NCBI GenBank assembly: GCA_023136775.1
Contig: JAGLQO010000001.1
Location: 47,488-111,487 of the forward strand
Direction: 5' to 3'
DNA length: 64,000 bases
DNA from: Candidatus Pacearchaeota archaeon
GTDB taxonomy: Archaea > Nanobdellota > Nanobdellia > Pacearchaeales > GW2011-AR1
Both the position numbers and the translations under genes were made by a program. Of this stretch, positions 4,756-44,895 are shown piece by piece (the stretch's first letter is position 1; the number at the start of each line of letters is the position of its first letter). A model generated the notes under the pieces. It worked only from the letters and a program-made list of their open reading frames with translations. It was not told where the DNA came from and ran no database searches.

Positions 4756-4860
4756 TGGGCGTGGCAAGATTTGAACTTGCGACCTCAAGCAGGGGTGGAA
4801 ATATTTTGGTCTGGTTATATTTCGTCCATAACTTGTGCTCTACTACTGAGCTACACACCC
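4756..4860 (-). tRNA. tRNA-like gene with ~35-nt insertion in the anticodon arm
   Basis: acceptor GGGTGTG/CACGCCC, D arm GCTC-AGTAGTA-GAGC, T arm GCAAG-TTCAAAT-CTTGC; anticodon stem halves CAAG..CTTG are separated by an insert with its own 7-bp hairpin GAAATAT/ATATTTC. Confidence 0.6.
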
Positions 4861-10746: not shown

Positions 10747-11598
10747 TTACCAGCCTATTTTTATCGAAGCTCCTAAGAGACCGTAGTTCTCTGCTTTTTC
10801 TGTCATTATGTAGGTCCCAGAGTATGAACTTGTCAGTTCATATTCATATTCATCATGATGAATATAACTGTAATAAACTCCAAAACCTAAAGATAGGCTT
10901 TTTATGTACCACATTTTGTCTATTGCGATTTTAAACCCAAGTCCATTTTCACCTTCTCGTTCATTATTGTATATATCTCCTGTGTTCCTGTCGGTGAATT
11001 TAATATCATGCATAATATTTCCCAAAAGAAGGGCTTCTGTTCTGAGATTGAACGTAGAGGATAAGTTTCCGTTTTTTATTTTGCTACTTTCTATAATAAC
11101 CCCAATAGCTATATAGGAGTTTTTACTGATGAGGTTTATATCACACTCCTCATGTACAAACGAGTAATTTTGATTGTACATTCCAATACCTGCGAAGGGT
11201 ATGAAAAATGTAGCAGTCCTGTCGTCGGAAATTTTATTTGCACTCATCCGAACTCTTGGGCCCAGAATAATATCAGTATCGAAAATTAGCGCTTTGGCAT
11301 CAAATAAATATTCATATTCTAATTCTATATTATCGGCATAATATAAATTACCCCTTGCATTAATAAGAAAAGATTCTGACAAAAGAAATTTCCCCTCAAG
11401 GTTTAAATTTGATGCCTGGGCGTTTGCCGCTTCCTGGGTTTCATCTTCAAATTCTATTGTGTATTCGAGTGCAGAAATTCCAACTCCTGCTGTCATTTTG
11501 AATACCGGTGAATCCACATTTCTTTCTTTGGCGGCTAATGAGCCTGCAGTAACTGTAAATAAAACTAATGTGATAATGAGAATTGTTAGTTTCTTCAT
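10747..11598 (-). CDS. outer-membrane beta-barrel-like protein
   Basis: signal peptide (SLAAKE), alternating hydrophobic pattern, C-terminal ...SIKIGW. Confidence 0.6.
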   Translation of the reverse strand: MKKLTILIITLVLFTVTAGSLAAKERNVDSPVFKMTAGVGISALEYTIEFEDETQEAANAQASNLNLEGKFLLSESFLINARGNLYYADNIELEYEYLFDAKALIFDTDIILGPRVRMSANKISDDRTATFFIPFAGIGMYNQNYSFVHEECDINLISKNSYIAIGVIIESSKIKNGNLSSTFNLRTEALLLGNIMHDIKFTDRNTGDIYNNEREGENGLGFKIAIDKMWYIKSLSLGFGVYYSYIHHDEYEYELTSSYSGTYIMTEKAENYGLLGASIKIGW

Positions 11599-11712: not shown

Positions 11713-12123
11713 ATGACAAGGGAGATAGTTAAAAGTTCCATTTATTTCAAATGGGCAGCAATTATTGGCGTACCAATGGGAATTGTTGTTTTTGCTACAT
11801 TGCTTCCTCTTTTTTTATTATATGGAAATGGTTCTATGCAAATAAGAATTGCTTCTGTAATTTTAGCAATTGGATATTTTATTATATTGAAAATTTCTTT
11901 GAAGAAATTTAAGGCTTGTTATCCATTTAGTACTCCTGTTTGGTTCAGCGATTTAGTTGGGTTTATTGTGCTTTTGCTCGGTGTTGGTCTTCCAAGTATT
12001 ATCGCAAAATCATTTATTTCTTTTGAGCTTTTTATTTCAGTCGCACTTTTTTCATATGCTGCAAGAAGATTTTATTCGAAGAGAGTTAGGGAATTATCTC
12101 AATTAAAGCCCGATGCAAAGTAA
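11713..12123 (+). CDS. membrane protein (only plus-strand gene in the left half)
   Basis: 136-aa ORF with 4 hydrophobic segments; no clear RBS. Confidence 0.4.
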   Translation: MTREIVKSSIYFKWAAIIGVPMGIVVFATLLPLFLLYGNGSMQIRIASVILAIGYFIILKISLKKFKACYPFSTPVWFSDLVGFIVLLLGVGLPSIIAKSFISFELFISVALFSYAARRFYSKRVRELSQLKPDAK

Positions 12124-14835: not shown

Positions 14836-15867
14836 TTATTCTAATGCAGCTTTACCAAATGGTCCGTATAGTTGAATCATTTCGTCATAAACTGGTTTGC
14901 CGACAAGGAATTCGTAAATTTCATCGGCTTTTTTACCTGGGTCGATATCGGCAAAAGAATCAGGATATAGAACTTTTCCGATGTAGTAAGCATTGGCAAG
15001 GACCGTTCCGTAGTTAGTGGTATACCAGTTGTAAGGAAGAACAAAATAAAGCTCATCATTTCTAACGGCTTTCATTAATTTTAATACTGGTTTGTTTTTG
15101 AAGTCTTCCATTACAAGATTATACCCATTGTAGTCAATGAATATTTTGTCGGCATTCCAAATAAGTAGCTGCTCGGGGTCGATGTAAGCATGTTCTGCTT
15201 CGACAGAAGAAGCAACATTGTTAGCATTAACAAATGCAAATGGAGCATAGTCTGGTTCTGTTGAGTCGATTCCGTGAGATCCTCTTTGTGAAACTCCACC
15301 GACGTAAACAGTTTCTTTGCTTTTGTTATTTTTAGTTCGGTCATCAAGATCTTTTATGGTGTCTTCAAAGAATGTTATTACTTCTTCGACTCTGTCTTCT
15401 TTATTTAAGACTTCTCCCATTAATCTTAAGGCAGCGAAAAAAGTTTTTATGTTGTTGTCTAAATCTCCGTAATCAATACAAACTACGGCGCTACCTGTTT
15501 TGTTTTGCATATTATCTGCTATCCTGCTTTCATTCATGTATGTAGTAAATATTACTTCTGGGTTTAGAGCAGCAATGGCTTCTGGGTCATTTCCCCTGAG
15601 TCCTATTGTCGGGAGTTTAAGCAGTTCGGGATGAGCAAAGGTATACGGTCTTCCACCTCTGGCAAACATTTCTTCGATACCGATAAGTAAGTCAGTAGCT
15701 TGGAGATAAACTAACAATCGAAGTGTCCCGGAATTTATCCCAATTATGCTGGTTACGTTGTCGGGTACGGTTACATTTCGATCTCTCATGTCAGTGATTT
15801 CGGCAGCACTCACCGAGAGACTTGTTATTAGCATTATTAAGATTATTAAAATTAGTAATTTTTTCAT
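14836..15867 (-). CDS. ABC transporter substrate-binding protein (Fe-siderophore/cobalamin type)
   Basis: start at MKKLLILIIL behind TAAGGAGAAC; cleavable signal peptide without lipobox; the pattern RNVTVPDNVTSIIGINSGTLRLLVYLQATDLLIGIEE is typical of FhuD/BtuF-class binding proteins. Confidence 0.75.
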   Translation of the reverse strand: MKKLLILIILIMLITSLSVSAAEITDMRDRNVTVPDNVTSIIGINSGTLRLLVYLQATDLLIGIEEMFARGGRPYTFAHPELLKLPTIGLRGNDPEAIAALNPEVIFTTYMNESRIADNMQNKTGSAVVCIDYGDLDNNIKTFFAALRLMGEVLNKEDRVEEVITFFEDTIKDLDDRTKNNKSKETVYVGGVSQRGSHGIDSTEPDYAPFAFVNANNVASSVEAEHAYIDPEQLLIWNADKIFIDYNGYNLVMEDFKNKPVLKLMKAVRNDELYFVLPYNWYTTNYGTVLANAYYIGKVLYPDSFADIDPGKKADEIYEFLVGKPVYDEMIQLYGPFGKAALE

Positions 15868-15966
15868 AAAGTTCTCCTTATGAATAGTTCGCATCCGATG
15901 ATGGATGTTGGCATGAGTTTTGCCAGACTTGTTATGCAATTAGTTTATTGATTCTGTAAGATAAAA

Positions 15967-16001: not shown

Positions 16002-16595
16002 TTAATAGCAGTAAGTCCACATCAATGAATATCCGAATCTGGAATCAAATACATCATCTATACTGTTTTTAGTTGTAACTGCATCATAATGTATTTCCGC
16101 CACCAATCCCATTCCATTTACTTTTCCCGTGGTAATTAGAAAAGCTGGACCAACGCTTAAAATACTTAACGAATATTCATTAACAGAATATTTTGCAGTT
16201 CCAATATGTACTCCCATTCCCATTGAAGCCCAGTCCATACCTTTTGCTTTAAAGCTTTTTCCAAATCCCAAAATATTATCAAAAGATATTATATCCATGG
16301 CAGAATAATCTGTTCCGTAGTTGTCCATGATAAAAATTGACTTTGAAAGACTGGTAAATCCGGTGTATCCCCATTTGTCAGTAGCTGGAGCAGAGGCAGA
16401 TACAATCGCTATATCTATATTCACAAGACTGTCATTGTCGCTGTCTTTTATTGAAAGTGAATTAAGTCCCAATCCGCCACCAATTAAACAATGTCTTTTG
16501 GATTTCGTGGGAGCTTCTGTTTCTCCCCCAGCAAAAAGATTTGATGCATTTACATATGTAATCATAATCATAATAAAAATTAGTAATTTTTTCAT
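16002..16595 (-). CDS. secreted beta-barrel-like protein inside the ABC operon
   Basis: start at MKKLLIFIMI behind TAAGGAGAAC; signal peptide; C-terminal ...MWTYCY. Confidence 0.55.
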   Translation of the reverse strand: MKKLLIFIMIMITYVNASNLFAGGETEAPTKSKRHCLIGGGLGLNSLSIKDSDNDSLVNIDIAIVSASAPATDKWGYTGFTSLSKSIFIMDNYGTDYSAMDIISFDNILGFGKSFKAKGMDWASMGMGVHIGTAKYSVNEYSLSILSVGPAFLITTGKVNGMGLVAEIHYDAVTTKNSIDDVFDSRFGYSLMWTYCY

Positions 16596-16681
16596 AAAGT
16601 TCTCCTTATGAATAGTTCGCATCCTATAATGGATGTTGGCATGAGTTTTGCCAGACTTGTTTTTATTTTTTATATTCCCTC

Positions 16682-24790: not shown

Positions 24791-24862
24791 TCCGTCTGAG
24801 TGGATTCGAACCACCAACCTTTAGATAAAAATTCTAATACTCTTGCCTCGAGCTACAAACGG
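24791..24862 (-). tRNA. tRNA-Lys(UUU)
   Basis: 72-nt cloverleaf: acceptor CCGTTTG/CAGACGG, D GCTC-GAGGCAA-GAGT, anticodon arm TTAGA-ATTTTTA-TCTAA, T GGTGG-TTCGAAT-CCACT; position 37 is U, which is unusual. Confidence 0.75.
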
Positions 24863-27521: not shown

Positions 27522-27990
27522 AGCTATGTAAATCCACTTGTAAAATTTCGCGATTTTTTTCGCATTTTAATCTCCTTTTTGTTGGGTTGGGATTTTTTCT
27601 TTTAATCCCTCAGTTTCTTTTTGTCTTCTGATGTGAGTTTTGGACTGGGTGTGGTAGGATTTGAACCTACGACTTCTATATTTTAGTATAGTACTCTACC
27701 TCTGAGCTACACACCCTGTGAAAATATTTTTTCAATTAGAGATTTTCAATTAGATGTATAAGTCGCTGCGAAAATTATCATATGTTTTTTTGCATTTCAA
27801 TTCATTAAATCGGCTTAATTTAATTTTTGAAGATAATACAATTTGGATAGTTAGTTTTTTTAATCATAATAATAATAAGTATTAGAAAACCAATTTTTGT
27901 CAATGAATTTTTCATAATATTCTCCTGTTTTAACTGCTTTAATAAGAATCAGATTCTTGTAATTTAAAGTCAGCTTTATTATTTTACTCA
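27522..27990. repeat. duplicated ~470-bp segment, copy 1 (offset 732 bp)
   Basis: aligns with 28254..28715, including the tRNA-like gene, its trailer and an upstream mini-ORF region. Confidence 0.85.
27646..27716 (-). tRNA. tRNA-like gene with 6-nt anticodon loop (copy 1)
   Basis: acceptor GGGTGTG/CACACCC, D GCTC-AGAGGTA-GAGT, stem CTATA/TATAG enclosing CTAAAA only, T GTAGG-TTCAAAT-CCTAC. Confidence 0.5.
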
Positions 27991-28253
27991 TTCAACTTAT
28001 CTGATATATAATCAAGATAGTTTGAATAAGCGCAGGCGCATAATTTTATCATTATGGCCTGCTGTTCATTGCTAACGTGCTTCATTAATATCACAATCCT
28101 ATTTAGCAATCGGCAACTACAGAAGTATATGTATACCCCTAATTTATTTATGGCGTGTCGTTTAAGTTGAACATATAGATGTATAATTATTATATTGGTG
28201 GCATAATTTGCATTTTCTCCTTTTTTGTTTATTTTGGTTGATTAGTAATTTGT

Positions 28254-28715
28254 AGCTATGTAAATCCACTTGTAAAATTTCGCGATTTTTTTCGCATTTT
28301 AATCTCCTTTTTGTTGGGTTGGGATTTTTTCTTTTTATCCCTCAGTTTCTTTTTGTCTTCTGATGTGAGTTTTGGGCTGGGTGTGGTAGGATTTGAACCT
28401 ACGACTTCTATATTTTAGTATAGTACTCTACCCCTGAGCTACACACCCTGTGAAAATACTTTTTTAATTAGATGTATAAATCGCTGCGAAAATTATCATA
28501 TGCTTTTTTTATTTTTTTATTTCAATTTATTAAATCGGTTTAATTTAATTTTTGAAGATACTGCAGTTTGGATAATTAGTTTTTTAATCATAATCATAAT
28601 CATAAGCATTAGAAAACTAATGTTTGTCAATGAAATTTTCATAATATTCTCCTTGTTTTAACTGCCTTAATAAGAATCAGATTCTTGTAATTTAAAGTCA
28701 GCTTAATTATTTTCT
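28254..28715. repeat. duplicated ~470-bp segment, copy 2
   Basis: see 27522..27990. Confidence 0.85.
28378..28448 (-). tRNA. tRNA-like gene with 6-nt anticodon loop (copy 2)
   Basis: same as 27646..27716 apart from D-loop differences (AGGGGTA). Confidence 0.5.
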
Positions 28716-29140: not shown

Positions 29141-29249
29141 AACAATCTCCTCTTAATTTTTATTTTACTTATTCAACTTATTCATAAGAATTAATTGAAT
29201 AGTTTGAATAAGCGCAGGCTAACAATTAAATTGAAAGCCTGCTTCGTTT

Positions 29250-29612
29250 TTAATTCTCCTTTTTTTTTCGAAGGTAATAAATCATTTCCTTCCTTTCCTT
29301 CTCACTCAATTTGCTTGGTTTAATTAAGTGGTGGAATTTAATGTTATAAAGATATTTTACAAGATTATGTAGTTTTACATATTCCATAAACCTCATTACT
29401 TCACCTGATACTTTGGTCCCAAATCTTTTCTCTATAATTCTTATAATATCGAGAGCCGACTTGCCATGTATTCCAAAGTTAAGACTTAGAATTGTATCCG
29501 GAAGAATTTCTCCTGTTTTGTTATTCTGCGCTAGAATTTCTGAAATAGCAGTTTTTAGTACTACAAAAATCAGAATTTCCCTTGTTGAATAACTTTTAAT
29601 CAATTCTTTCAT
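29250..29612 (-). CDS. hypothetical protein (120 aa)
   Basis: AAGGGGAAAAG RBS. Confidence 0.5.
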   Translation of the reverse strand: MKELIKSYSTREILIFVVLKTAISEILAQNNKTGEILPDTILSLNFGIHGKSALDIIRIIEKRFGTKVSGEVMRFMEYVKLHNLVKYLYNIKFHHLIKPSKLSEKERKEMIYYLRKKKEN

Positions 29613-29711
29613 TTCTTTTCCCCTTCGAAAAATATAGAATTTTATAAGTTAGTTAATAACTAACAATTGAAATAATTAACGCCACACCGTTAAGATGTGA
29701 CGTTAAACTGG

Positions 29712-30287
29712 TTATTCTGACGAAAGTTCAATGGCTTCATCAAAACTATAATCGGGATGAGTGAGCGTCAATCCCAAATTCATAAAATGGTTATTATTTG
29801 ATGTCCATGCCGCACCTGATATATGTTTATTATTTCTTGAAATAACATATGTCGCAACATCATGACATTCATCATCCTCACCAACATATAGTTTTTCAAG
29901 CTGTTCAAAATCTTTAGATAATGGATAACCCATAATAGCCATATTGTCATATAAGATATTGATATGAACCCGAATTAGCTCATCATTAACAAAGTAATAA
30001 AAGACGTATGTATATATCCATAGTTTATACGGTTCAGGAAGACTTGAAAGATTCAAAGTTTCATAGTGTTGTTTCTTATGGAGCCATATTTTATTATCAC
30101 TACTACCATAAATTTCAAAGAAACCACGCTCTGCTTCAAAAGCTTTGACTTCAGACATGCTATCGCCCCAAGGTATATCTCCGTATAAGATTAAATTTTC
30201 AGTAGCAGTCGACTCCTGTGCAAAAAGTGACAAGGCAGATATAAGCATAAATACTATAACAATTACTGTAAGTAAATTCGTTTTCAT
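29712..30287 (-). CDS. secreted hypothetical protein
   Basis: TAAGGAGAAAAAG RBS; signal peptide ...LSLFAQE. Confidence 0.6.
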   Translation of the reverse strand: MKTNLLTVIVIVFMLISALSLFAQESTATENLILYGDIPWGDSMSEVKAFEAERGFFEIYGSSDNKIWLHKKQHYETLNLSSLPEPYKLWIYTYVFYYFVNDELIRVHINILYDNMAIMGYPLSKDFEQLEKLYVGEDDECHDVATYVISRNNKHISGAAWTSNNNHFMNLGLTLTHPDYSFDEAIELSSE

Positions 30288-30395
30288 CTTTTTCTCCTTA
30301 GAAAAATTTATTTATTTATTTCAAAAGCTAATTAAGGATTGACTGTAATTTGAATTAACGTCACATTGTTAAGAGGTGACGTTTGAGAAATTCAA

Positions 30396-30632
30396 CTACG
30401 GAAGAAGGGGATTATTTTTGTCAATAACCGCAGAGACTATTCGACCATTTTCAAAGGTAATTCTTTTTACCTTGTAGCCGATTTCTCTTTGTAGTTCTTC
30501 AAATACACTATCTAGTTCCGTACTATTTTTAAATATAGAGCCAATTTTGCAATTCACGCCATACTTCTTCTGAAGTTTTTTGGCTTTGATTAAGCTACGT
30601 TTTTCTTTAACTGGCCTTTCAACATTTTCCAT
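30396..30632 (-). CDS. hypothetical protein (78 aa)
   Basis: TAGGAGT RBS. Confidence 0.5.
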   Translation of the reverse strand: MENVERPVKEKRSLIKAKKLQKKYGVNCKIGSIFKNSTELDSVFEELQREIGYKVKRITFENGRIVSAVIDKNNPLLP

Positions 30633-30724
30633 AATATACTCCTATTAAAATTATTTTTACCAAATTTCTTTAGTTTTGGATTTTTTAGACACTTTTAGTG
30701 AGTTCAAAATTAAAATGAATGAAA

Positions 30725-30934
30725 TTAAATAGATATTTTATTCCATTCATTCCTTTTGAGGAAAGTTAAAATTAAACTCAAAACAATAAGGAAAATATAC
30801 AGGCAAACTGCAATGAAAAAAGTAGCTATTTGTATAACAGGGAACCATGCAGCTATAGCATCCATATTAAAGTAACCCATAGCGATTGCCATAATAGAAC
30901 TAACCATCAACATAATACCGCTAAATTTACGCAT
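30725..30934 (-). CDS. small membrane protein (69 aa)
   Basis: GAAGGAGAAAT RBS; 2 TM segments. Confidence 0.5.
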   Translation of the reverse strand: MRKFSGIMLMVSSIMAIAMGYFNMDAIAAWFPVIQIATFFIAVCLYIFLIVLSLILTFLKRNEWNKISI

Positions 30935-31000
30935 GATATTTCTCCTTCAAATTTTAAAAAAACAGGAGTCTCTTGTAAAAATAAGAGACTCCTTTTGGCG

Positions 31001-31555
31001 TTACATAACCTGCACCCAAGTTACAGATAGATCATATCCCAGAGCTTCAGCATTCAAAACACCAACATCATCATTAAGTTCCCCAGTAAAATAGTAATCG
31101 ATGGGAAGTTTAATGCCCAGGTTTTCGAAGAATTCCAGAAGTTCATTGTTGACATTTTCATAGTAAACTGGTGTTACCTTTAGTTCTGTTCCATTCAGTT
31201 CATAGATGGCAGCAATTCTGAACTTACCCATAACAAGTTTAACATACTCATGTTCAAAGATTTCTACAAAAACCGGATTAAGATACTTTTTAGGTATGTA
31301 TACCGGTTTCCCATCTTTGGTGAGTTCCAGATTGGAAGCTTGCCAGATTGCGAGAGGTTTGTGTTCTTTTTCAACAACCTCTATAGCAGGTTTGGCGGCT
31401 ACTTCTTCAACAACGGCTTTCGCAGCAACAGGTTCAGCCAGAGTTTCAACAACGGGTTCTTCTACTACGGTTTCTACTTTTTCTGTGGTAGCACAAGAAG
31501 CTAAAGCAAAAAGTAATACCAAGAGAACCAAAAAATATACTGTGTATCGTTTCAT
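31001..31555 (-). CDS. putative lipoprotein
   Basis: start at MKRYTVYFLV behind TAGGAGGTG; lipobox ALASC; Val/Glu/Ala-rich linker. Confidence 0.65.
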   Translation of the reverse strand: MKRYTVYFLVLLVLLFALASCATTEKVETVVEEPVVETLAEPVAAKAVVEEVAAKPAIEVVEKEHKPLAIWQASNLELTKDGKPVYIPKKYLNPVFVEIFEHEYVKLVMGKFRIAAIYELNGTELKVTPVYYENVNNELLEFFENLGIKLPIDYYFTGELNDDVGVLNAEALGYDLSVTWVQVM

Positions 31556-31794
31556 GATACACCTCCTATTTATCTTCACATTTTATGGAGATTATTATTT
31601 ATAAGACATCAACGATGTCTCACCATCCCCACAATTGCTTCTTGGATTTTTTAGAAGTTAAGGGACCAACCTCTTTATTCACTAAGGATAAAGAAAGTTT
31701 TAATTTATAAAATACAATTCATTCTAATGTTTTTTCATATGGTAAATAAATAACAAAAAAAGGGCTTGTTTCAAAGAAACAGCGGCCCTAATTG

Positions 31795-32508
31795 TTAGAA
31801 TTCAGATACTCCTAAAGTTATACCAATAGCGTGATAGTTTCTTTCGAAGAAGTATGCATGAGAAATACCGAGCAATATTCCAGAGGGCTTTTCACCATCC
31901 CCAAGTACAATGTTTAACCCAGATCGCATGTAGAAACCACTTCCAAGAGAATAGCTATCGTAGATTACACTATCATTTGGTGCACCACAATAATCTACAC
32001 CTCTATAATGTCCAGTAGTAATGGTATAATGATGAAATGATTGTTGGAAATAAAAGCATCTTTCAGTTCCTTTTCCCAGTCTTACAAAGTATCCTCCATA
32101 AAAGAAAAACTCGCTGAAATCAATCCCTTGGAGCCTTACTGGATCCCACCAGTCTACGGTGATAGATTTACTGGGCATCGTCGCAAGCATTGAAATCCCA
32201 ATAAGCGGACCAAAGCTGAATAAGTGATTCAACTCAAGAGCAAAAATGCCCATTTCTATAAAGATGGCATGCATACTTCTGCTGCTACCCTCGTAAAGAT
32301 CCATGCCATTGTTACTTGAGGGAATGAAAAGTAATTGCCAGTTTTCAGGGATTGGTTCATTAAAGTCATCCATCATATCATTAGGATTAAGCAAAAAACT
32401 GATTCGCATCCCCCACTTAAGATTGTCCACAGGGACAAAATTAACATCAACCGCGAAGGCATTAGCTGAAATCAAGAGAATCATAAACACAAAAAAGATC
32501 TTTTTCAT
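31795..32508 (-). CDS. outer-membrane beta-barrel-like protein
   Basis: GGAGGTG RBS; signal peptide ...ANAFA; C-terminal ...LGVSEF. Confidence 0.6.
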   Translation of the reverse strand: MKKIFFVFMILLISANAFAVDVNFVPVDNLKWGMRISFLLNPNDMMDDFNEPIPENWQLLFIPSSNNGMDLYEGSSRSMHAIFIEMGIFALELNHLFSFGPLIGISMLATMPSKSITVDWWDPVRLQGIDFSEFFFYGGYFVRLGKGTERCFYFQQSFHHYTITTGHYRGVDYCGAPNDSVIYDSYSLGSGFYMRSGLNIVLGDGEKPSGILLGISHAYFFERNYHAIGITLGVSEF

Positions 32509-32957
32509 AACACACCTCCAAAATGGTTATTTCAAATTTATAGCCAAAAAATTCTAAAGAATCTTATAATAAAAAAGTCATTCATAATATTTTTTTGTTT
32601 AGCTATCTTGAAAAGAATCAACGATTCTTGTAAATTAGAACTGGCTTAATTTACCTCCTAATATAGAATACATTAATTTTTAATCACGTATTTCACGTGA
32701 ATATCAGAAATAATTTATATGGAAATACCTTATTTAGGGTATTTCGGTAAAATAATATAGTTGCTATAAGCTTGTCGCTTGAGAATTTTTTTTGAAATAA
32801 CCTATTTCGCAAAATTTTTATTTTTCGCTTAGGGTATTTCTTTTGGGATTTTCCACTTTGTTTCTTGAGGGTTGAAAATTCAATTTTTTTATTGAATTGT
32901 TATTACTTGTTTTTATGTTTTGTTTGTGGAAATTTTTGTTTGTGTGAATGTGAATTG

Positions 32958-35009
32958 TTAGTTAGTTGGTCTGATAATTTTTTTCCAACCTTTGTCATAT
33001 TTTATTTCATTAATTTTAATTAATCCTTTTTCTATTAATGTATTTTTTACATTAGTTCCTTTTCTAGTTGAAAGATTAATTTTTCGATATACTTCAACTG
33101 TACTAAGTTCATGAACAGGATTTTCGCGCAAGAATTTCATAAAGACTTGCTCGTCATTAGTTAAGCTATTATCTTGTGAGTTGTTACTACTTTTAAATGT
33201 TACTACTAGTTGGTTTTCAAAAACTTTGTTTATCACGGTCATAATATCAAGACTAGTATACTTACCTTGAGTTTTACTTTTTTCCAAGATTTTTTCAATT
33301 TTTTCAAGTTCAATTCCAGCCTTTAAATGTTCAATTGTAAAATCATGAATCATTTGTTGAACATCGGTAAATGAATTCTTTGAATTCATGGGGGGTGTAA
33401 TTCTGCGGAATCTACTGGTCTGGGGTGAGCGGGTGAGCGGGTTGGTGGTTAGGTGAACTTCGTTCACGATTATTTTTTCGGGAACATTGTTGCGTTGTTC
33501 TTCGACGCTTGTTGATGATTGAGTTAAGTTATTTGTGGTAGGTTCTGTTTTAATTTCGATTGGTTTTTTCTTCGGTGCAAGTGGAGATTCTATTTCGGAG
33601 TTGAATTTAGTATCTACTTTTTCCCCATAGTCGTGGTTTAACATCATGGCTTGCATTCTTGCTTTTATGTCGGCATTTGATACATGTTTATCTCGCAAGT
33701 CAACATTTGGTACTTCAATTAAGAAAGGCATGGTATACCGTTCCGCTAGTTTTACAATGGCATTTCCTACGGCTAATTGTGAGAAATAATTTTTACTTTC
33801 TTTAATATCCATTATTCCACTAATATCAAAAATATCTTGGGGAAGTTGTTGTTGAAATGCTATGTGACAAGCAGAGTTTCCTTTTACTGTGTCAGAAATT
33901 TTTGAAATATGCTGGTCTAGGCAAACTAGGCTAGTTCCATATTCTCGCATTTCTCTGTATATCATATCTGTTGTTGATTCGTTTGAGAAGCTTGTCGGTT
34001 TTTTTAAGAAGATATTATGTGCTTCGTCAACTATAATTGCGTGGTCGAAAGATTGGTTGGGGTGATTTTGTCTTGCTTTTTTTAGTTTGAAAATGTAGGT
34101 TAGTACAAATTCGCAGAAGAATGTTTTTTCAATGTTTCCTAGAGAGTTTAATTCCATTACAACTTTTTTGTTTAATAAATCTTCGACGCTAAAAGAATTA
34201 GTTCCTTTGTAGTTTACAACTTTTCCAAATTCTCCAAATGTTAAAACTGTTGCAACTCTTAAGGCTGATTCAATCCAACCCGATTCTCGGTTATTTACTT
34301 TATCCATTTTTTCCTCCAATCTCCATTTAATGTGATTCCATGTTGGATAGTTTTCACTGCCGTTGTAAATTCCCCATTCTTTGAAAGCTTCATCTAGAGT
34401 TTCTAATATTACTTTATGAACTCCAAATGATGCCGAGAAAGCTTCCGTTAAAAGGTCAGTTAATGTGTTAATCCATTCTTTTGGAGCTACTCCTTTTGGC
34501 GGACGATTGATGTTTGTCTTGAATAAGTTGCTTACAGATTCGTCTCCTACGGTAAAGGTCATTATATTATTATCAATGGCAGAAAGTGGTCTGAAAGATT
34601 TTTTCCAGTCGAAAATTAAATAAGGTTTTTTGTTCGCGTTTAGTGCTTCAATTATTTTGAATGCAAAAGTTGTTTTTCCAGAACCAGACATTCCTGTAAC
34701 ACAGATATGACGTGGCCAATCTTTTTCTCGTAGTTTAAAGGGGAAAAGTTTTCTTTTGGCGTAGCTGATTGTTGCTAATTCGTATGTTCCGTTGATTTGT
34801 TCTTCTCTTGGAGGTTCTAATAAAACGCCTTTGTCAAGTAATTGATTAAGATGTTTTTGGTAAAGAGCGTTTAGAATATGTACGATTTCTTCTCTATCGT
34901 CTCGTCCTTCTGCTATGGTATATTGGAAATAAATTTCATCTACTTTTTCTCCGAAGACGGGACGCAATTTATTACAAATTTCTTCAACTGATAATGGTCT
35001 TTGTATCAT
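32958..35009 (-). CDS. FtsK/HerA-superfamily P-loop ATPase (DUF87-like) with C-terminal winged-helix-like domain
   Basis: Walker A VTGMSGSGKTT, Walker B AIIVDEAHN; C-terminus LSTVEVYRKINLSTRKGTNVKNTLIEKGLI is wHTH-like; ATG abuts the stop of the upstream gene. Confidence 0.7.
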   Translation of the reverse strand: MIQRPLSVEEICNKLRPVFGEKVDEIYFQYTIAEGRDDREEIVHILNALYQKHLNQLLDKGVLLEPPREEQINGTYELATISYAKRKLFPFKLREKDWPRHICVTGMSGSGKTTFAFKIIEALNANKKPYLIFDWKKSFRPLSAIDNNIMTFTVGDESVSNLFKTNINRPPKGVAPKEWINTLTDLLTEAFSASFGVHKVILETLDEAFKEWGIYNGSENYPTWNHIKWRLEEKMDKVNNRESGWIESALRVATVLTFGEFGKVVNYKGTNSFSVEDLLNKKVVMELNSLGNIEKTFFCEFVLTYIFKLKKARQNHPNQSFDHAIIVDEAHNIFLKKPTSFSNESTTDMIYREMREYGTSLVCLDQHISKISDTVKGNSACHIAFQQQLPQDIFDISGIMDIKESKNYFSQLAVGNAIVKLAERYTMPFLIEVPNVDLRDKHVSNADIKARMQAMMLNHDYGEKVDTKFNSEIESPLAPKKKPIEIKTEPTTNNLTQSSTSVEEQRNNVPEKIIVNEVHLTTNPLTRSPQTSRFRRITPPMNSKNSFTDVQQMIHDFTIEHLKAGIELEKIEKILEKSKTQGKYTSLDIMTVINKVFENQLVVTFKSSNNSQDNSLTNDEQVFMKFLRENPVHELSTVEVYRKINLSTRKGTNVKNTLIEKGLIKINEIKYDKGWKKIIRPTN
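33424..33515. repeat. GC-richer segment shared with 41493..41585 (lies inside the ATPase CDS)
   Basis: shared blocks GGGTGAGCGGGTT, GTGAAC-TTC-GTTCACGATT, ACATTGTTG. Confidence 0.7.
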
Positions 35010-35231
35010 TTATTTTACTCCATACAAAACTTTGGCTTTGTACATTTTTTTAAGTATACCTTCTTTAAATCCAGCTTTCTTTCCAGGGTCAAAAAATTTA
35101 GTTTGATAATTAATAAGTTTTCTTGTTGATCTACTATCTAAATCGGTTTTGTCTTCAGTAATATACTTGATGTAACATTCTCGTGCTTTATTGAGTGCAA
35201 CTCTTGCTTCTCTTCCATAATTTCTTTCCAT
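35010..35231 (-). CDS. small basic protein (73 aa)
   Basis: ORF translationally coupled to both neighbours. Confidence 0.5.
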   Translation of the reverse strand: MERNYGREARVALNKARECYIKYITEDKTDLDSRSTRKLINYQTKFFDPGKKAGFKEGILKKMYKAKVLYGVK

Positions 35232-35232
35232 C

Positions 35233-35670
35233 TTATTCAGTTAATATCTTTTCAAGCATTTCTGCTCTAGAAGTCTTTTCATTTATTTGTAGATTATGTT
35301 CACGAAGTTCTCTTTTTAGTAATGAGATATCTCTCCAACATCCTATTTTTTCATTAAGTTGTAATTCTGAAATATCTAGTTGTTTCTTTCTTAGTTCGGA
35401 TCTTTCTCTGGCAAATTCAGAATCATCTTCTCCTTTTGGGGCATTTTCTAATAGAAAATTATTGATGCTACTTTTCATGGCTTCGCCTTCTTTGATGAAT
35501 CGTCCACTTAAAGTATTTCTTTCGCCAATCATTTCTTTAATTTCTGTTACTACGTCCTTTAAAGAGTCAATCTTTGCTTGTCCTACGGAACTAAAGTTTT
35601 CAGAGGAGGTATTCCACGTATTTCCCCTAATAGGATTTTGAGGTATTTCGTTTATTTTGAGGTTTTCCAT
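35233..35670 (-). CDS. coiled-coil protein (145 aa)
   Basis: first gene of the three-gene unit; TTTATATA box ends 21 nt before the ATG; no RBS. Confidence 0.55.
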   Translation of the reverse strand: MENLKINEIPQNPIRGNTWNTSSENFSSVGQAKIDSLKDVVTEIKEMIGERNTLSGRFIKEGEAMKSSINNFLLENAPKGEDDSEFARERSELRKKQLDISELQLNEKIGCWRDISLLKRELREHNLQINEKTSRAEMLEKILTE

Positions 35671-35771: not shown

Positions 35772-36377
35772 TTAATCTTCTTGATTTTGAAAAATAGGAT
35801 GTTTTATTACTCTATAATAATTTCCTTCTTTTGAGTCGTTTTCAAATCCTAGAGATTCAAATAGCAACATTGACTTGTAATTATCTTCGTGAATTTTTGC
35901 TATAGTTGGAATACCTACATTTGTAATATTATTAATGAGTTCTTTTGCATGTCCTTGATTTCTGTTGTTTTCGTTAACTGCAATTATTCTAAGATATCTT
36001 CTGAATCCATTGTCTTCATAGGCAGCGGCAGCAACTATATTGTCTGATGTTAAATTATTTCTTACTATAATACTATTTTCATCTTTTTCTAGGCTTGATA
36101 CAACATGGTATCCATGATCTACTCTTGAAAATAATGAATCTATTTCTTTTTCTTCTGTTGTTTCATAAGGTCTTGTCTCGAAGTTATCGAGTCCAGCATC
36201 ATTAGTATCGTTATTAATTGCAAGATATTTGTTTGTAAGTTCTGGTGTCCATCCGCCATTTTTTTCTGCCTTTTCTATTATAGAATCTAAACTTTCTATA
36301 AATATATTATGATATTTATCTTTATAAAGTTTACTATTTGTTGTTTCTGTGAAGTAGTGACACTTATTTGAAAACCA
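35772..36377 (-). pseudogene. GNAT-family N-acetyltransferase-like ORF without a usable start codon
   Basis: I translated 201 open codons between TAG (36380-36378) and TAA (35774-35772); contains RIIAVNENNRNQGHAKELI (acetyl-CoA motif A-like); no ATG/GTG/TTG until 27 codons before the stop, so missing from the ORF track. Confidence 0.55.
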
Positions 36378-36456
36378 CTATATCTCTAGAAATAAATTGA
36401 TCTGGACGAGATTCTAAAATTGGTTTTATATAAACTTTCAATCCAGTTTTTTCTGC
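36367..36456. repeat. 90-bp direct repeat, copy 1 (detached copy of the last 30 codons of the methyltransferase gene)
   Basis: 89/90 identical to 37354..37443 by direct comparison; the single difference is synonymous (TAT/TAC). Confidence 0.9.
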
Positions 36457-36505
36457 TACCGTATGTTGACACAGATTATTTAAAGCTAAATATATTAACA
36501 ATGAA

Positions 36506-37333
36506 ATGGAAGATGGAAAGAAGTTAGTCATTTTTCAAGATAAGAAGATAAGAAGAATTTGGCATAATAATGAATGGTATTTTTCAGTAAGTGATATTAT
36601 AGCGGTTTTAACAAATAGTATTGATCCTGTAGCATATTGGAGAAAATTAAAGCAAAGGCTAAATGAAGAAGGAGATAAAACCGTGACAAATTGTCACGGT
36701 TTGAAAATGCTTGCTCCAGATGGAAAATTAAGATTTACAGACTGTGCAAATACAAGATCTCTTTTCAGAATAATACAATCTATTCCTTCAAAGAAAGCTG
36801 AACCATTTAAGCAATGGCTAGCACAAGTGGGATATGAACGAATCGAAGAAATTCAAGATCCAGAACTAGGGCAGAACAGAATAAAAGAATATTATCAGCT
36901 TAAGGGATACCCAAAAGAATGGATTGATAAAAGACTTCGTGGAATTGCAATACGACAAGAACTAACAGATGAATGGAAAAATAGAGATATTAAGATGCAA
37001 AAAGAATTTGCAATTCTGACTAACGAAATTTCTAAAGCAACATTTGGTAAAACAATTGGAGAATATAAAGATTTTAAGGGACTTGATAAAGAAAATCTAA
37101 GGGATCACATGTCTGACTGGGAACTTATTTTAACAATGTTCGGAGAAAAAGCAACAACTGATATAACAAAAGAAATTAATTCTAGGGGATTTGAAGAGTG
37201 CCAAGATTCTGCGAAAGAAGGTGGAAATGCCGCAAAAGAAGCAAGAGAAAGCGTAGAAAAACGTTTGGGAAAATCAGTTATTTCTAATGAAAATTATTTA
37301 TCGAAACAAAAAGAAAATAAGACGTTAGAATAA
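36506..37333 (+). CDS. BRO-N (Bro/KilA-N-type) domain protein
   Basis: N-terminus LVIFQDKKIRRIWHNNEWYFSVSDIIAVLTNS is typical BRO-N; A/T TATA-like box upstream. Confidence 0.7.
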   Translation: MEDGKKLVIFQDKKIRRIWHNNEWYFSVSDIIAVLTNSIDPVAYWRKLKQRLNEEGDKTVTNCHGLKMLAPDGKLRFTDCANTRSLFRIIQSIPSKKAEPFKQWLAQVGYERIEEIQDPELGQNRIKEYYQLKGYPKEWIDKRLRGIAIRQELTDEWKNRDIKMQKEFAILTNEISKATFGKTIGEYKDFKGLDKENLRDHMSDWELILTMFGEKATTDITKEINSRGFEECQDSAKEGGNAAKEARESVEKRLGKSVISNENYLSKQKENKTLE

Positions 37334-37350
37334 TAAAACTTTACAATTTT

Positions 37351-38430
37351 TCATTTGAAAACCACTATATCTCTAGAAATAAATTGATCTGGACGAGATT
37401 CTAAAATTGGTTTTATGTAAACTTTCAATCCAGTTTTTTCTGCAATTTTTTGAGCATCTGTATGAAAGTCTCTAATAGTTGGAAATGTAATTGCTATATT
37501 TGCTTTTGGTTTTTTTACTTTTGCTAGTTTAGACAGAATTGGAATCATATAAGCTTCAAAGTTTCTAATAATTTGTTTTGCTTCATTATCATTTGGTTTC
37601 TTTCTTAAAACTTTTCCTAGTGGAGTTTCGGTTGCGATTCCTGAAAATTGTAAATCAGGAGTTTTTCTTGAGTCTTTATTTTCAATGGTATACTTTGAAT
37701 TAAATTTGTAATTTTCTTTCATCCATTCCAAATTTGCAATAGCATCAATTGTAGCTTGTTTATCTTTATCTATTCCATGAACATTAATTCCTTTAATTAG
37801 AGCTTCTTGTAATATCCCGCCAACTCCACAAAACGGATCAAGCATTAAATCTCTAGGCTTAGCTCCAGACAGGTTAATTAAAATCTTAGAAAGTCTAGGT
37901 GAAATAGCTAAAAGCTCTCGTCTCATTGGTTTGTTCATATCACGATTCTTAACGTCTTTGCTGTCATATTCTTGCGTAGAAGTTCCAAAGTAAGTAACGC
38001 CAGCATCTTCATAACAAAATATGTAGAATTCAGCCTTAGGAATATTGATTTTACTTCCGTCTTGCATTTTCAATTGTTTGCTTCCGTGCTTTATCGTAGC
38101 CTTTTTCTTTCGTTCTTTAAATTTGTTTTTTAGGAGTTCTTCATCAATATTTCCAAAAATTCCGTAAGAAAATTTGTCTGCGGGAACAATTTCAATAGAC
38201 TCTAAATGTTCTTCTAACTTTTCAGGAGTCCCCTCAAAAGTAATTTCTCCGAGCCACATAATCCCACCAAATTCTTGAATGTTAAATTTTTCACCTTCAT
38301 TAGTTTCAATAATTAAAATATTATCTCTAAACATAATTTCTTTGTGCTCTCTATTTCTAGTTTTTAGAAATTCTAGTATTTCTGCCCTAGAAAGTTCAGG
38401 GTTACGACCGAGGATAAAAAAGGTTTTCAT
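37351..38430 (-). CDS. THUMP-like/SAM-dependent RNA (tRNA guanine-N2) methyltransferase, Trm11/Trm-G10-like
   Basis: SAM motif LMLDPFCGVGGILQEALIKG; family size and archaeal context fit. Confidence 0.7.
   Translation of the reverse strand: MKTFFILGRNPELSRAEILEFLKTRNREHKEIMFRDNILIIETNEGEKFNIQEFGGIMWLGEITFEGTPEKLEEHLESIEIVPADKFSYGIFGNIDEELLKNKFKERKKKATIKHGSKQLKMQDGSKINIPKAEFYIFCYEDAGVTYFGTSTQEYDSKDVKNRDMNKPMRRELLAISPRLSKILINLSGAKPRDLMLDPFCGVGGILQEALIKGINVHGIDKDKQATIDAIANLEWMKENYKFNSKYTIENKDSRKTPDLQFSGIATETPLGKVLRKKPNDNEAKQIIRNFEAYMIPILSKLAKVKKPKANIAITFPTIRDFHTDAQKIAEKTGLKVYIKPILESRPDQFISRDIVVFK
37354..37443. repeat. 90-bp direct repeat, copy 2 (3' end of the intact methyltransferase gene)
   Basis: see 36367..36456. 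Confidence 0.9.
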
Positions 38431-38476
38431 GATTATAAGAAATATTGATGATATATAAGTTTAAGCTCTTGAAGAT

Positions 38477-39028
38477 TTACGCTGTAATTGGAGTTTCGAA
38501 TTTTACAGTTTCTGTTCCAACTTTGCAAGCTAATCTTGCTTTAGAGGATTTGATTAATTTTCTAGCTTCAATTTCTTGTTTTGGTGTTTTAACCCCAATA
38601 ATATAAAGAGTTTGATTTGCTTTTACTAATGCAGCTCTTCCCATAGTTTTACCGAAAGCTCGACTCATACCAGTCTGCATACGGTCAGCACCAGCACCAG
38701 TAAGCATTTTATTTTCTCTTAAAATATGATGTGGGTGAACCTTTACTTCAAGATAGAATTCTTTTCCTATTTTAATTTGAAGAAATCTGTTATAGAACTG
38801 ACGAACAGCTTCTAGGGCATTATCTCTAATTTGGCAGTTTTCTTTAGAGGTTACATGAATTTGAATAGGGTATTCACCTTTGTCAAAGCCTTGAATATCT
38901 CCCATTTTGAATTTCACAATTTTTGCATTTGGGACTGCTTTAATATAATTTTTTGTTCTTTTTTTAGAAACTCTTGTATATGGTCTTGCGTATCTTTTAG
39001 AGTATGCTGAACCTTTTCTTAATGCCAT
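38477..39028 (-). CDS. rpl10e: 50S ribosomal protein L10e (uL16)
   Basis: MALRKGSAYSKRYARPYTRVSKK...HPHHILRENKMLTGAGADRMQTGM is a characteristic L10e sequence. Confidence 0.9.
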   Translation of the reverse strand: MALRKGSAYSKRYARPYTRVSKKRTKNYIKAVPNAKIVKFKMGDIQGFDKGEYPIQIHVTSKENCQIRDNALEAVRQFYNRFLQIKIGKEFYLEVKVHPHHILRENKMLTGAGADRMQTGMSRAFGKTMGRAALVKANQTLYIIGVKTPKQEIEARKLIKSSKARLACKVGTETVKFETPITA

Positions 39029-39029
39029 C

Positions 39030-39296
39030 TTAGTTAACCTCTACATCAGTTCCAATTGATTGTCCTGGTAATCCTCTTTCAAAGATTGCTCGAACTACTC
39101 CGTTTCCGCCGTGCGCTGAAGAAATTTTACCTGTGATTGTTTTTGGTTCTTTGCCTGTGCTAGTCCAGACTGCAGTTTTGCTTACGAACTTATTTGCCTT
39201 TTCTCTGGAGTCACATCCAGGAATTTCAATTAAGAAATGTCTAGGTTTGAATACTTTTCGTCCTCTTCGGAATTGAATAACTTTTGCAGTAACCAT
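39030..39296 (-). CDS. rpl35ae: 50S ribosomal protein L35Ae (eL33)
   Basis: start at MVTAKVIQFRRGRK; C-terminus GKISSAHGGNGVVRAIFERGLPGQSIG matches the L35Ae family. Confidence 0.85.
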   Translation of the reverse strand: MVTAKVIQFRRGRKVFKPRHFLIEIPGCDSREKANKFVSKTAVWTSTGKEPKTITGKISSAHGGNGVVRAIFERGLPGQSIGTDVEVN

Positions 39297-44100: not shown

Positions 44101-44895
44101 CTAGCTCCTAACTAAATATTCGAGTTCCTTAATTTCTTTCACATCCCTTAATTTTTCGACTACTCTATCCTGAATTTGTCTCACTCTTTCTTTTGTAATT
44201 CCATATTGTATACCCAATTCTTCCTGACTATATTTAAAATTATCTTCATTTAGCCCAGATCTTTTTTTCAAAATGTCTGCTTCTCTTGGAGTTAACTCTT
44301 TATCGAATATAGATATTAGATCGTGTCTTAAAAAATTTTGAGTTTCTCCTGGGTTATATGTGTTATCTGGAGTGGAATCCAAAATTGTTTCCCAAGAATT
44401 AGAATTGTTATAATCTAATGAAGATATAGCATTAACATTAATTAATCTTTTAATAGAATCTATATCTTCTCCCATTTCTTGTGAGATAGTTTCAATATTA
44501 TTTCCTCTAGATTCCATAATATGTATTCTTGAAAGCTTATGGTGCTTCTTGCTAGATATTCGGATTGTTCTAGATTTTTCAATCAATGCATTAGAAATAA
44601 ATCCTTTTATGTAAGATATAGCATAGGTACTAAATTTAGTATCCCTTGATGGATCATATCTTTTTACGGCTTTTATAAGTCCACAATTTCCTTCTTGGAC
44701 AAGTTCATCATAACTGAGTCCACGCCATCTAAATTTTTTAGCTTCTTTTAAGACAAGTCCAAAATTAGAATTAATCAGAATATCTCTAGCTTCTAGATTT
44801 CCTAAATCTTTTTCTCTTCCGAGTTTTTGTTCTTCATCTTTACTTAGTAGAGAATATTTTTTAGCCTCCTTTCTATAATAATCCAGACTTTCCAT
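44101..44895 (-). CDS. sigma-70-family RNA polymerase sigma factor homologue
   Basis: region 2: LINSNFGLVLKEAKKF..LSYDELVQEGNCGLIKAVKRYDPSRDTKFSTYAISYIKGFI; region 4: LTPREADILKKRSGL...EELGIQYGITKERVRQIQDRVVEKLR. Confidence 0.85.
   Translation of the reverse strand: MESLDYYRKEAKKYSLLSKDEEQKLGREKDLGNLEARDILINSNFGLVLKEAKKFRWRGLSYDELVQEGNCGLIKAVKRYDPSRDTKFSTYAISYIKGFISNALIEKSRTIRISSKKHHKLSRIHIMESRGNNIETISQEMGEDIDSIKRLINVNAISSLDYNNSNSWETILDSTPDNTYNPGETQNFLRHDLISIFDKELTPREADILKKRSGLNEDNFKYSQEELGIQYGITKERVRQIQDRVVEKLRDVKEIKELEYLVRS

Follow-up and report, generated by a model that had tools for sequence, protein, structure and literature searches.

A sharp switch of expression signals in a Candidatus Pacearchaeota contig probably marks the edge of a hypervariable gene array at a conserved ATPase locus

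A 64,000-nt stretch of a Candidatus Pacearchaeota archaeon genome (GenBank assembly GCA_023136775.1, contig JAGLQO010000001.1, positions 47,488 to 111,487; hereafter the window) switches from bacterial-style to archaeal-style expression signals at about 32.6–32.95 kb. A first-pass annotation had read this switch either as a chimeric contig or as a bacterial-derived island of more than 32 kb within an archaeal genome. According to the analysis reported here, the switch probably marks the edge of a hypervariable accessory gene array, which occupies a fixed site in a clade of Woesearchaeota and Pacearchaeota between a HerA/DUF87-family ATPase gene and a PEP-synthase-like gene (PEPS), and which measures 0.8 to more than 10 kb elsewhere and 35.6 kb here. 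The window sequence is also contained in contig DAOWHN010000028.1 (120,776 bp; GCA_030641395.1; record position = window position + 47,603), which extends beyond the window by 47.6 kb to the left and 9.2 kb to the right. The underlying reads were obtained from a sediment core of the Site-F cold seep, South China Sea (PRJNA707313; PMC9357000). The features of the locus are, in window coordinates:

1–32668, minus strand: accessory gene array (island) of about 55 co-directional small genes, recognised by Shine–Dalgarno (SD) sites, terminators, its far boundary in Logan contig L010, Pfam matches, orphan status, and G+C at third codon positions (GC3)
31795–32508, minus strand: first array gene, encoding a 237-aa signal-peptide protein, with GGAGG at 32519–32515, 6 nt 5′ of the ATG at 32508
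32581–32651, minus strand: degenerate cassette-repeat copy, the third copy of the cassette at 27911–27985 and 28638–28713 (79–85% identity)
32666–32668, no strand: array edge and strain-level breakpoint, from variant contigs L003, L006, and L009
32687–32840, minus strand: phased TGAAATACC repeats, with forward copies at 32840–32833, 32745–32738, and 32694–32687
32958–35009, minus strand: anchor gene, encoding a HerA/DUF87-family P-loop ATPase of 683 aa (DUF87 at 39.7 bits, cut-off 23.2)
35010–35231, minus strand: p73, upstream gene of the ATPase operon
35233–35670, minus strand: p145, coiled-coil protein, leaderless first gene of the operon, with TTTATATA at −33 to −26

A single mechanical rule (first ATG, greedy, non-overlapping) was applied to call open reading frames (ORFs), and an SD site was scored if GGAG or GAGG was located 4–17 nt 5′ of the start. 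The ribosome-binding sites (RBS) that the first-pass annotation had described for the left half were recovered in this way: 34 of the 47 genes left of 32.5 kb carry a GGAG-type SD site vs. 3 of 32 to the right, and the misses on the left are mostly starts that were called too far upstream. The stem-plus-U-run terminators reported for the same half were likewise found, with 32 terminator-like hairpins between 12.7 and 32.7 kb (9.5 ± 3.0 expected; 3.4 times) and 8 between 37.5 and 57.5 kb (9.4 ± 3.8 expected). At least ten of the island hairpins begin 5–15 nt past a stop codon, with T-rich tracts behind them. N-termini resembling signal peptides or transmembrane segments (SP/TM-like) are present in 21 of 45 island proteins vs. 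1 of 21 core proteins, in agreement with the signal-peptide products listed originally, and a FecCD/ABC/Peripla_BP_2 transporter is present, in line with the periplasmic-type binding protein noted there. To the right of the junction, MCM, L35Ae, L10e (Ribosomal_L16), a RadB-like gene, and TruB/Cbf5 were recovered as annotated, together with an archaeal-type topA. The TATA-like boxes without RBS that had been ascribed to this half were also confirmed; a TATA-like hexamer is centred 24–29 nt 5′ of the ATG in 80% of the core genes, which is the pattern of leaderless archaeal transcripts. Upstream of island genes no positional TATA peak was detected, and sigma-70-type −35/−10 pairs are not enriched in the island (86 vs. 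85.1 ± 10.8 expected); the best pair score upstream of island genes was 8.31 in sense, 8.49 in antisense, and 8.39 ± 0.11 in shuffled sequence. SD sites also precede operon-internal core genes (L10e, topA, the ATPase gene itself, and a glycosyltransferase gene), and the host is hence evidently able to use them.

The two halves were also compared in k-mer and codon usage, as had been proposed with the first-pass annotation. The tetranucleotide correlation between the halves (0.868) equals the correlations within them (0.861 and 0.855), and the G+C content ranges from 0.29 to 0.37 along the whole window. GC3 is 0.291 in the island vs. 0.225 in the core, and relative synonymous codon usage (RSCU) correlates at r = 0.905 between island and core vs. 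0.94–0.95 within the sets, i.e., the codon-usage shift is modest in this genome. The cumulative GC skew has its minimum at the junction (~31–33 kb), which probably reflects the all-minus-strand array; the phased repeats in their 25% G+C spacer, taken together with this minimum, may conceivably have a replication-related role.

Exact-protein look-up of the two genes flanking the junction returned independently assembled contigs that cross it; these derive from three assembly pipelines and from sediment samples taken at four physically separate points. The Logan contig L002 (sample RS_8) matches window positions 29,179–34,668 at 100% identity, and L004 and L007 (both RS_9, two pipelines), L005 (RS_2), and L008 (RS_6) run over the junction at an identity of at least 99.9%. 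L007 stops at 32,893, short of the right end of the interval 32,509–32,957, which L002, L004, L005, and L008 span fully. At the other end of the island, AGGAG/GGAGG starts persist for ~2.98 kb past the left edge of the window on L010, and beyond that point, from PEPS onward, the style returns to TTTATATA at about −28 without SD sites; the island thus has a total length of ~35.6 kb. The nearest relatives of this far-flank PEPS (35–55% identity) are almost all encoded in Woesearchaeota or Pacearchaeota metagenome-assembled genomes. Because archaeal-type genes resume on the far side, the block is an island in the middle of a 120.8-kb archaeal contig, and inspection of the rest of that contig, as advised earlier, found archaeal genes on both sides of it. 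An assembly chimera, in which a diderm bacterial contig was wrongly joined to a DPANN contig near 32.6–32.95 kb, would explain why the expression signals change sharply at the junction and why three short contigs (L003, L006, and L009) break at 32,666–32,680. It is hardly credible, however, given the four contigs that span the interval and the fifth that covers most of it, from different samples and different assemblers, the DPANN archaeal-style genes beyond the island, the lack of a compositional break, and the recurrence of the ATPase-then-array junction in dozens of unrelated assemblies (see below). The chimeric option of the first-pass annotation was consequently dropped.

The 449-bp interval 32,509–32,957 holds no credible ORF and can, with good probability, be regarded as the intergenic region between a conserved DPANN operon (p145, p73, and the ATPase gene) and the first array gene. 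Its array side (32,509–32,668) comprises the GGAGG that serves as RBS for the first array gene and, further on, the degenerate cassette repeat that had been noted before near 32,613. Strain variants narrow the point of the style switch to 32,666–32,668. L003 and L006 are 99.1% identical to the array and change at this position to another upstream sequence, which contains a divergent gene with an archaeal-style TTTAAA box, and L009 arrives from the ATPase side at 100% identity and stops exactly at 32,666. This strain breakpoint is located 19–21 nt past the last repeat copy. The tails of L003, L006, and L009 had no match among the other fetched contigs, and the contigs found via L35Ae were too short for the variable zone. 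The 237-aa product of the first array gene has no Pfam or NCBIfam match, and an exact copy of it was found on 8 contigs.

The same locus was retrieved from dozens of other genomes of Woese- and Pacearchaeota worldwide. The first relatives (L020–L023 and L025) were fetched through PEPS, and 80 further loci were fetched from Joint Genome Institute (JGI) metagenomes by means of an alignment of ATPase orthologues. The conserved order is L35Ae-L10e-methyltransferase-p145-ATPase, followed by TGAAATACC repeats, a variable array, and PEPS. In L020, L35Ae, L10e, and a UPF0020 methyltransferase (60–77% identical to those of the window) are followed by PEPS after 48 bp; this is an empty site, in which the whole p145-ATPase-array unit is missing. 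L021 and L025 have the same core genes, then p145 (71–72%) and the ATPase (65–75%), a block of 4.5 kb (L021) or about 1.4–1.9 kb (L025), and PEPS, and in L022 and L023 the ATPase gene is followed by a block of 6.8 or 8.9 kb and PEPS. The blocks in L021, L022, L023, and L025 are composed of small co-directional genes with SD sites, signal peptides, and lipoboxes, and no mutual similarity between them was detectable. Most of the 80 JGI loci keep the order from L35Ae to the ATPase, with PEPS 0.8 to more than 10 kb downstream. For 38 non-redundant loci, array and core genes compare as follows (percentages approximate):

SD motif: array 40%, core 10% (p = 3e-21)
TATA box only: array 9%, core 47%
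Same strand as the ATPase gene: array 81%, core 58%
SP/TM-like N-terminus: array 37%, core 10%
Mean protein length: array 145 aa, core 240 aa

The G+C content of the array exceeds that of the flanks in 33 of the 38 loci (mean +3.9 points, p = 2e-5), and hairpin terminators are 2–3.5 times denser in the other arrays (p = 0.009) and ~6 times denser in the island of the window. Some island families recur elsewhere: the L107 array encodes a relative of a 180-aa beta-rich island protein (42% identity, E = 1e-35), a three-member membrane family is also present in the L110 array, and a different contig from the same sediment core encodes a relative of the N-terminal domain of a 407-aa Lcl_C protein (69% identity). 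It therefore seems likely to us that the island is the expanded form of a hypervariable array at an orthologous locus across the clade, rather than a one-off import. A relative of the 407-aa gene was observed on L100 (RS_11, 1430 bp; 75.5% nucleotide identity over 715 bp, same RBS style), with another C-terminal domain in place of Lcl_C and another downstream neighbour; this points to domain shuffling in the family.

Downstream of the ATPase gene, the loci have short oriented repeats in common. Across 58 loci, the 7-mer GAAATAC occurs at 0.53–0.62 copies per 100 nt between +100 and +400 nt after the ATPase stop vs. a background of 0.02 (27–30 times enriched), and almost all repeat copies are oriented like the ATPase gene. 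In the window, copies of GAAATACC are located at 32,840, 32,745, and 32,694, accompanied by a variant repeat copy (GAAATAGG) at 32808–32801 and an inverted copy at 32729–32722. The extended consensus is a-n-T-GAAATACC-Y-t (82 instances, 39 loci). Since neighbouring copies are spaced at multiples of 10.5 bp (Rayleigh R = 0.77, peak exactly 10.5, p ~ 1e-11), the repeats lie on one face of the helix, like arrays of protein-binding sites. The ATPase next to them has orthologues of 48–84% identity in the 80 metagenome loci, and p145 has orthologues of 40–74% identity, which are syntenic in most loci. Beyond DUF87, the ATPase has weak CedD and HerA NCBIfam matches; no significant sequence match was obtained in the PDB, no relatives in IMG/VR, and one weak match in GenBank phages. 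Its residues 635–680 match phrog_11046, annotated as ‘transcriptional regulator’ (E = 2e-5), and the C-terminal domain is possibly DNA-binding.

Further features of the core side are located to the right of the ATPase operon:

36366–37443, plus strand: Bro-N gene insertion, with the gene at 36506–37333 and 91-bp direct repeats at 36366–36456 and 37353–37443
37351–39296, minus strand: core flank with UPF0020 methyltransferase, L10e, and L35Ae genes, archaeal-style promoters, and synteny kept in dozens of loci
44101–44895: sigma-70 family gene comprising regions 2 and 4, preceded by a TATA-type promoter of the archaeal kind, beside the archaeal-type topA

The Bro-N gene matches phrog_15286 (E = 2e-98), and the right-hand 91-bp repeat is the 3′ end of the methyltransferase gene. 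In the relatives, the methyltransferase gene is followed directly by p145, which identifies the Bro-N segment as a small insertion with target duplication outside the conserved locus; it has no recombinase of its own. Another variation of this flank was seen in L009 (sample RS_7), whose positions 1–379 join the window at 35129 and in which GC-rich DNA with a tRNA-Cys(GCA) gene stands in place of p145 and of the 5′ part of p73; L009 either comes from a rearranged strain or is itself a short chimera. The sigma-70 gene is present at 44.1 kb as annotated. The link to the island that had been drawn from it was not upheld, as sigma-70 promoters are not enriched and the gene is not syntenic with the arrays. 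Among 160 other loci, no sigma-70 gene was found within 10 kb of an array, except for two that lie inside arrays (L111 and L178). Sigma-70 and other bacterial-type proteins have already been published for DPANN archaea (PMC8204110).

The cargo of the arrays at other loci is in part of a bacterial type, and only ~20 of 148 pooled array proteins have a Pfam match. The L159 array encodes a 1,200-aa secretin (Secretin_N, E = 3e-50; Secretin and GspD-N0 domains), after which archaeal-style promoters and low G+C return. CsrA was identified in three distinct loci (73–91 bits, cut-off 27), PEP-CTERM tails in three arrays, and sigma-70-family proteins in the two arrays named above; Lcl_C is also among the cargo. 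In bacteria, CsrA is a regulator whose targets are GGA motifs at SD sites, and to our knowledge neither secretin nor CsrA has been described in archaea. In L159 (12996–20204), CsrA is followed by two DUF4056 lipoproteins and then the secretin; the other CsrA genes are located at L022 5316–5552 (identical with L113) and L120 8556–8717 (identical with L122). Co-directional tRNA genes were also observed within arrays (L023 4769–8088, L125 15555–18873, L108 13896–13986, L169 20033–20104, L151 14190–20371, and L140 18331–18405). These are ARAGORN predictions only, and they include A34 anticodons (Thr-AGT, Ile-AAT, Arg-ACG) as well as TCA (SeC/opal-suppressor-like); A34 anticodons are, as far as we know, not typical of archaea. 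With their bacterial-type cargo and their G+C excess, the arrays look like sinks for foreign, at least partly bacterial DNA.

For the island itself, the picture is less direct. What stood of the first-pass proposal of a bacterial-derived island of more than 32 kb is an archaeal genome with an island that keeps bacterial-style signals. The island proteins are mostly orphans; for one of 283 aa, neither 5.8 billion clusters nor 1.84 billion representatives yielded a relative. Homologues in DPANN archaea, which had been named beforehand as evidence against a bacterial origin, were found for three island families, whose closest full-length relatives are in DPANN arrays or in the same habitat, and the clade of the FecCD permease is mixed (Bacteroidales, Thermoplasmatota, Woesearchaeota, and Asgard). 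Named matches of the Lcl_C domain are mostly bacterial and cover the domain only; like the RHS/YD, LysM, and ankyrin domains, Lcl_C is widespread in bacteria and not diagnostic. Bacterial ancestry is thus plausible for the arrays in general and unproven for this island, and the latter looks like a large, internally duplicated, heavily diverged example of such an array.

The content of the island consists of orphan proteins (secreted, lipobox, or membrane), of proteins with ankyrin, RHS/YD, LysM, or Lcl_C domains, of a FecCD-type ABC importer, and of five tRNA-like genes, all aberrant. The first-pass annotation had taken five of the proteins for beta-barrels and hence for part of a diderm signature. 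This was not confirmed: no outer membrane protein family was found in Pfam or NCBIfam and no match in the PDB, and C-terminal F/W/Y is not enriched (5 of 21 SP-like vs. 3 of 24 other island proteins, p = 0.44). No paralogy was detectable among the beta-rich island proteins; the AlphaFold2 (AF2) single-sequence model of a 234-aa member is all-beta at a predicted local distance difference test (pLDDT) score of 42, and a 2-sequence profile of the 180-aa family had no PDB match. The internal duplications and the paralogous intergenic cassettes indicate that the island is evolving in place. A tandem duplication of ~730 bp was observed at 27522–28713 (core of 219 bp, 98% identical), and each of its units contains a tRNA-like gene, a small SD-led ORF, and an AAGAATC..GATTCTT hairpin cassette.

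The anticodon arms of the five tRNA-like genes (1384–1480, 4756–4860, 24791–24862, 27646–27716, and 28378–28448, all minus strand) are abnormal: one gene has a loop or insert of 8 nt, one is Lys-UUU-like with U37, and two copies carry a loop of only 6 nt (CUAAAA). Acceptor and D arms are common to three of the genes. In the gene at 4756–4860, 40 nt replace the 7-nt loop and fold as 3 × 3 and 2 × 2 internal loops plus a 7-bp hairpin. An intron-type tRNA as proof of an archaeal origin of the island was considered for this gene and rejected, as it has no canonical bulge-helix-bulge and no U33-compatible splice. Without a bulge-helix-bulge and with all five being aberrant, the tRNA-like genes are uninformative on the domain of origin; they are possibly decoys, processing signals, or integration relics. 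They are internal to the island, none being located at its ends, and the two ends have no direct or inverted repeat of at least 12 bp in common.

Some further elements recur within the island. A 20-nt palindrome (ACATTTCC-GNAT-GGAAGTGT), followed by AAATTTATTT and an SD site, is located 5′ of the genes starting at 11598, 13323, 14013, 24180, and 22407, often after a TATATAA box and a common CCATTAAATTGGT element; it may serve a set of secreted-protein genes as their operator or as a stem-loop in their 5′ regions. The adjacent genes for Peripla_BP_2 and a 197-aa secreted protein (14836–15939 and 16002–16622) have a common duplicated 5′ region and signal peptide (MRTIHKENFMKKLLI...) as well as near-identical 3′ hairpins (AGAAC.GTCAGTCA..TGACTGACTGTTCT). 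As annotated at first pass, every island gene but one is on the minus strand. The exception (11713–12123, plus strand) encodes a membrane protein of 136 aa; its start lacks an SD site and is preceded by TTTTAAATAA near −27, which makes it a gene of archaeal leaderless style amid the SD-led array.

We propose the following mechanism for the hypervariable array. Array genes would be transcribed into leadered mRNAs and translated by SD/anti-SD pairing, and the core genome would use leaderless mRNAs. The array would be a hotspot for the gain, duplication, and loss of foreign, at least partly bacterial DNA, and newcomers would enter at its repeat-proximal edge. The TGAAATACC repeats would be bound by a protein seated on one face of the helix, for which the C-terminal domain of the ATPase is a possible candidate (by analogy with FtsK/KOPS and TraB/clt, see below), and the array products would act at the cell surface, probably contacting a host or partner cell. 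Several points weigh against this proposal. Neither a TATA nor a sigma-70 promoter type can be assigned to the array genes, and the strong terminators after most of them speak against simple polycistronic read-through. The array yielded neither a recombinase nor an attC-like site, and no direct repeat was detected at its boundaries. The DNA-binding role of the ATPase has a single weak PHROG match behind it, and the AF2 single-sequence model of its C-terminal 124 aa is uninformative (both AF2 models have a pLDDT of 42–46). The phased repeats could instead be the operator array of a regulator or part of the 3′ region of the ATPase gene. This island shows no direct sign of bacterial ancestry, and its composition is near that of the host. 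Finally, gene calls at the comparison loci are naive (first ATG), which makes the percentages given above approximate, and for ‘open’ loci the 10 kb taken 3′ of the ATPase gene possibly overrun the end of the array.

A farther-reaching version of the proposal is a dedicated capture-and-display locus, in which the ATPase, loaded on the TGAAATACC repeats, would drive or guide the insertion of foreign, largely bacterial DNA at the neighbouring array edge, captured genes would keep their bacterial translation and termination signals and be placed under bacterial regulators captured along with them (CsrA, sigma-70), and their products (lipoproteins, secretins, beta-rich secreted, ankyrin, and RHS proteins) would attach to or breach diderm hosts; we consider this unlikely. 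Quite unlikely, in turn, is a single recent transfer of a 35.6-kb piece of a diderm bacterial chromosome with its native signals. The SD sites, terminator-like hairpins, lipoboxes, and Lcl_C, RHS, and LysM domains would fit such a transfer, as would the slight difference in RSCU and GC3. For the orphans, however, no bacterial homologues were found in the same metagenomes or among 15 billion proteins, tetranucleotide usage is that of the host, sigma-70 promoters are not enriched, and the island contains internal duplications and paralogous intergenic cassettes; smaller arrays of the same style occupy the same locus in other species, and the island has families in common with other DPANN arrays.

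An integron-type cassette array lacking an integrase (CALIN, cluster of attC sites lacking integron-integrases), in which promoter-less cassettes would have been taken up through site-specific recombination, with the hairpins as attC sites and the motif region as an attI-like site, is just as improbable as such a block transfer. It is suggested by the small, co-directional orphan genes, which have an RBS each, no detected promoter of their own, and a hairpin after each ORF, by the signal-peptide enrichment, anchor-proximal strain variation, and cross-domain cargo, and by archaeal CALINs with signal-peptide-enriched cassettes reported in GTDB Nanoarchaeota (PMC9668308). On manual inspection, though, the hairpins are 24–36 nt long, near-perfect, followed by T tracts, and of several unrelated classes, and not the 57–141-nt imperfect palindromes with R''(RYYYAAC)/R'(GTTRRRY) cores; no tyrosine recombinase is present in or beside the array, and the neighbour is the ATPase gene instead of IntI. 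Very unlikely, finally, is an integrated archaeal or bacterial virus or plasmid with the ATPase serving in packaging or transfer, even if the mostly co-directional orphans, the aberrant tRNA-like genes, the weak match of the ATPase to a terminase-type PHROG, the mobile DNA nearby (Bro-N insertion; tRNA-Cys in one variant), and the complete absence of the p145-ATPase-array unit from L020 are in its favour. Against it, no capsid, portal, integrase, or replication gene, no structural PHROG match, no IMG/VR relatives, and no att repeats were found. The p145 and ATPase genes (65–75%) are better conserved than the neighbouring housekeeping genes and fixed beside ribosomal-protein genes in dozens of genomes, and through this conservation and fixed position they fit a chromosomal core module and not a mobile element.

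The hypervariable array can be compared with several kinds of known systems. With integron arrays and CALINs (Ghaly et al. 2022, PMC9668308), its closest architectural analogue, it has in common a fixed anchor with a variable, co-directional array of small, mostly orphan genes, an RBS of their own, no evident promoters, a hairpin per ORF, enrichment in secreted proteins, cross-domain cargo, and anchor-proximal variation. Unlike integrons, it has neither attC sites nor an integron integrase and is instead anchored by an ATPase operon with helically phased 9-mer repeats; it also includes tRNA genes and multi-gene clusters (the ABC importer here, the secretin with lipoproteins in L159). Free-living bacteria likewise have hypervariable islands whose chromosomal position is conserved, for example hypervariable region 2 (HVR2) of SAR11 and the genomic islands of Prochlorococcus. 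These resemble the present locus in lineage-wide location, strain-variable content, cell-surface functions, and atypical composition, but the locus described here differs from them in its change of expression mode (from a leaderless, TATA-driven core to an SD-led, terminator-bounded array), in its CsrA and sigma-70 regulators, and in the dedicated ATPase and repeats that adjoin it. DNA translocases of the FtsK-HerA superfamily are guided by short oriented repeats, as in FtsK-gamma with the FtsK orienting polar sequences (KOPS) and in Streptomyces TraB with clt, and in TraB plasmids the clt repeats are located at the 3′ end of traB. The likeness lies in an ATPase with an extra C-terminal domain and in 8–9-nt repeats of one orientation just downstream of its gene. 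It is an analogy only, since the ATPase of the window has no above-threshold similarity to these proteins (FtsK_SpoIIIE, E = 0.022). Bacterial-type genes including sigma-70 in genuine archaeal contigs of Woese- and Pacearchaeota also appear in Castelle et al. 2021 (PMC8204110), a census of protein families, in the searched passages of which no account was found of the locus, the contrast of signals, the repeats, or the ATPase anchor.

How the hybrid gene sets of DPANN archaea are acquired and expressed is an open question (PMC8204110). The locus described here is one conserved site that gathers genes of SD and terminator style within core genomes that are leaderless and TATA-driven, and it offers handles in its conserved ATPase, its phased repeats, and an insertion edge that varies between strains. 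For genome curation it means that a sharp switch of expression grammar in a contig is by itself not evidence of mis-assembly or contamination, and pipelines that trim “bacterial-looking” segments from DPANN bins would remove this locus. Should the less probable capture-and-display version be true, it would be a non-integron gene-capture system and genomic evidence of DPANN archaea parasitising bacteria. The fast-evolving pool of surface proteins encoded at the locus may show who the partners of these uncultured archaea are.

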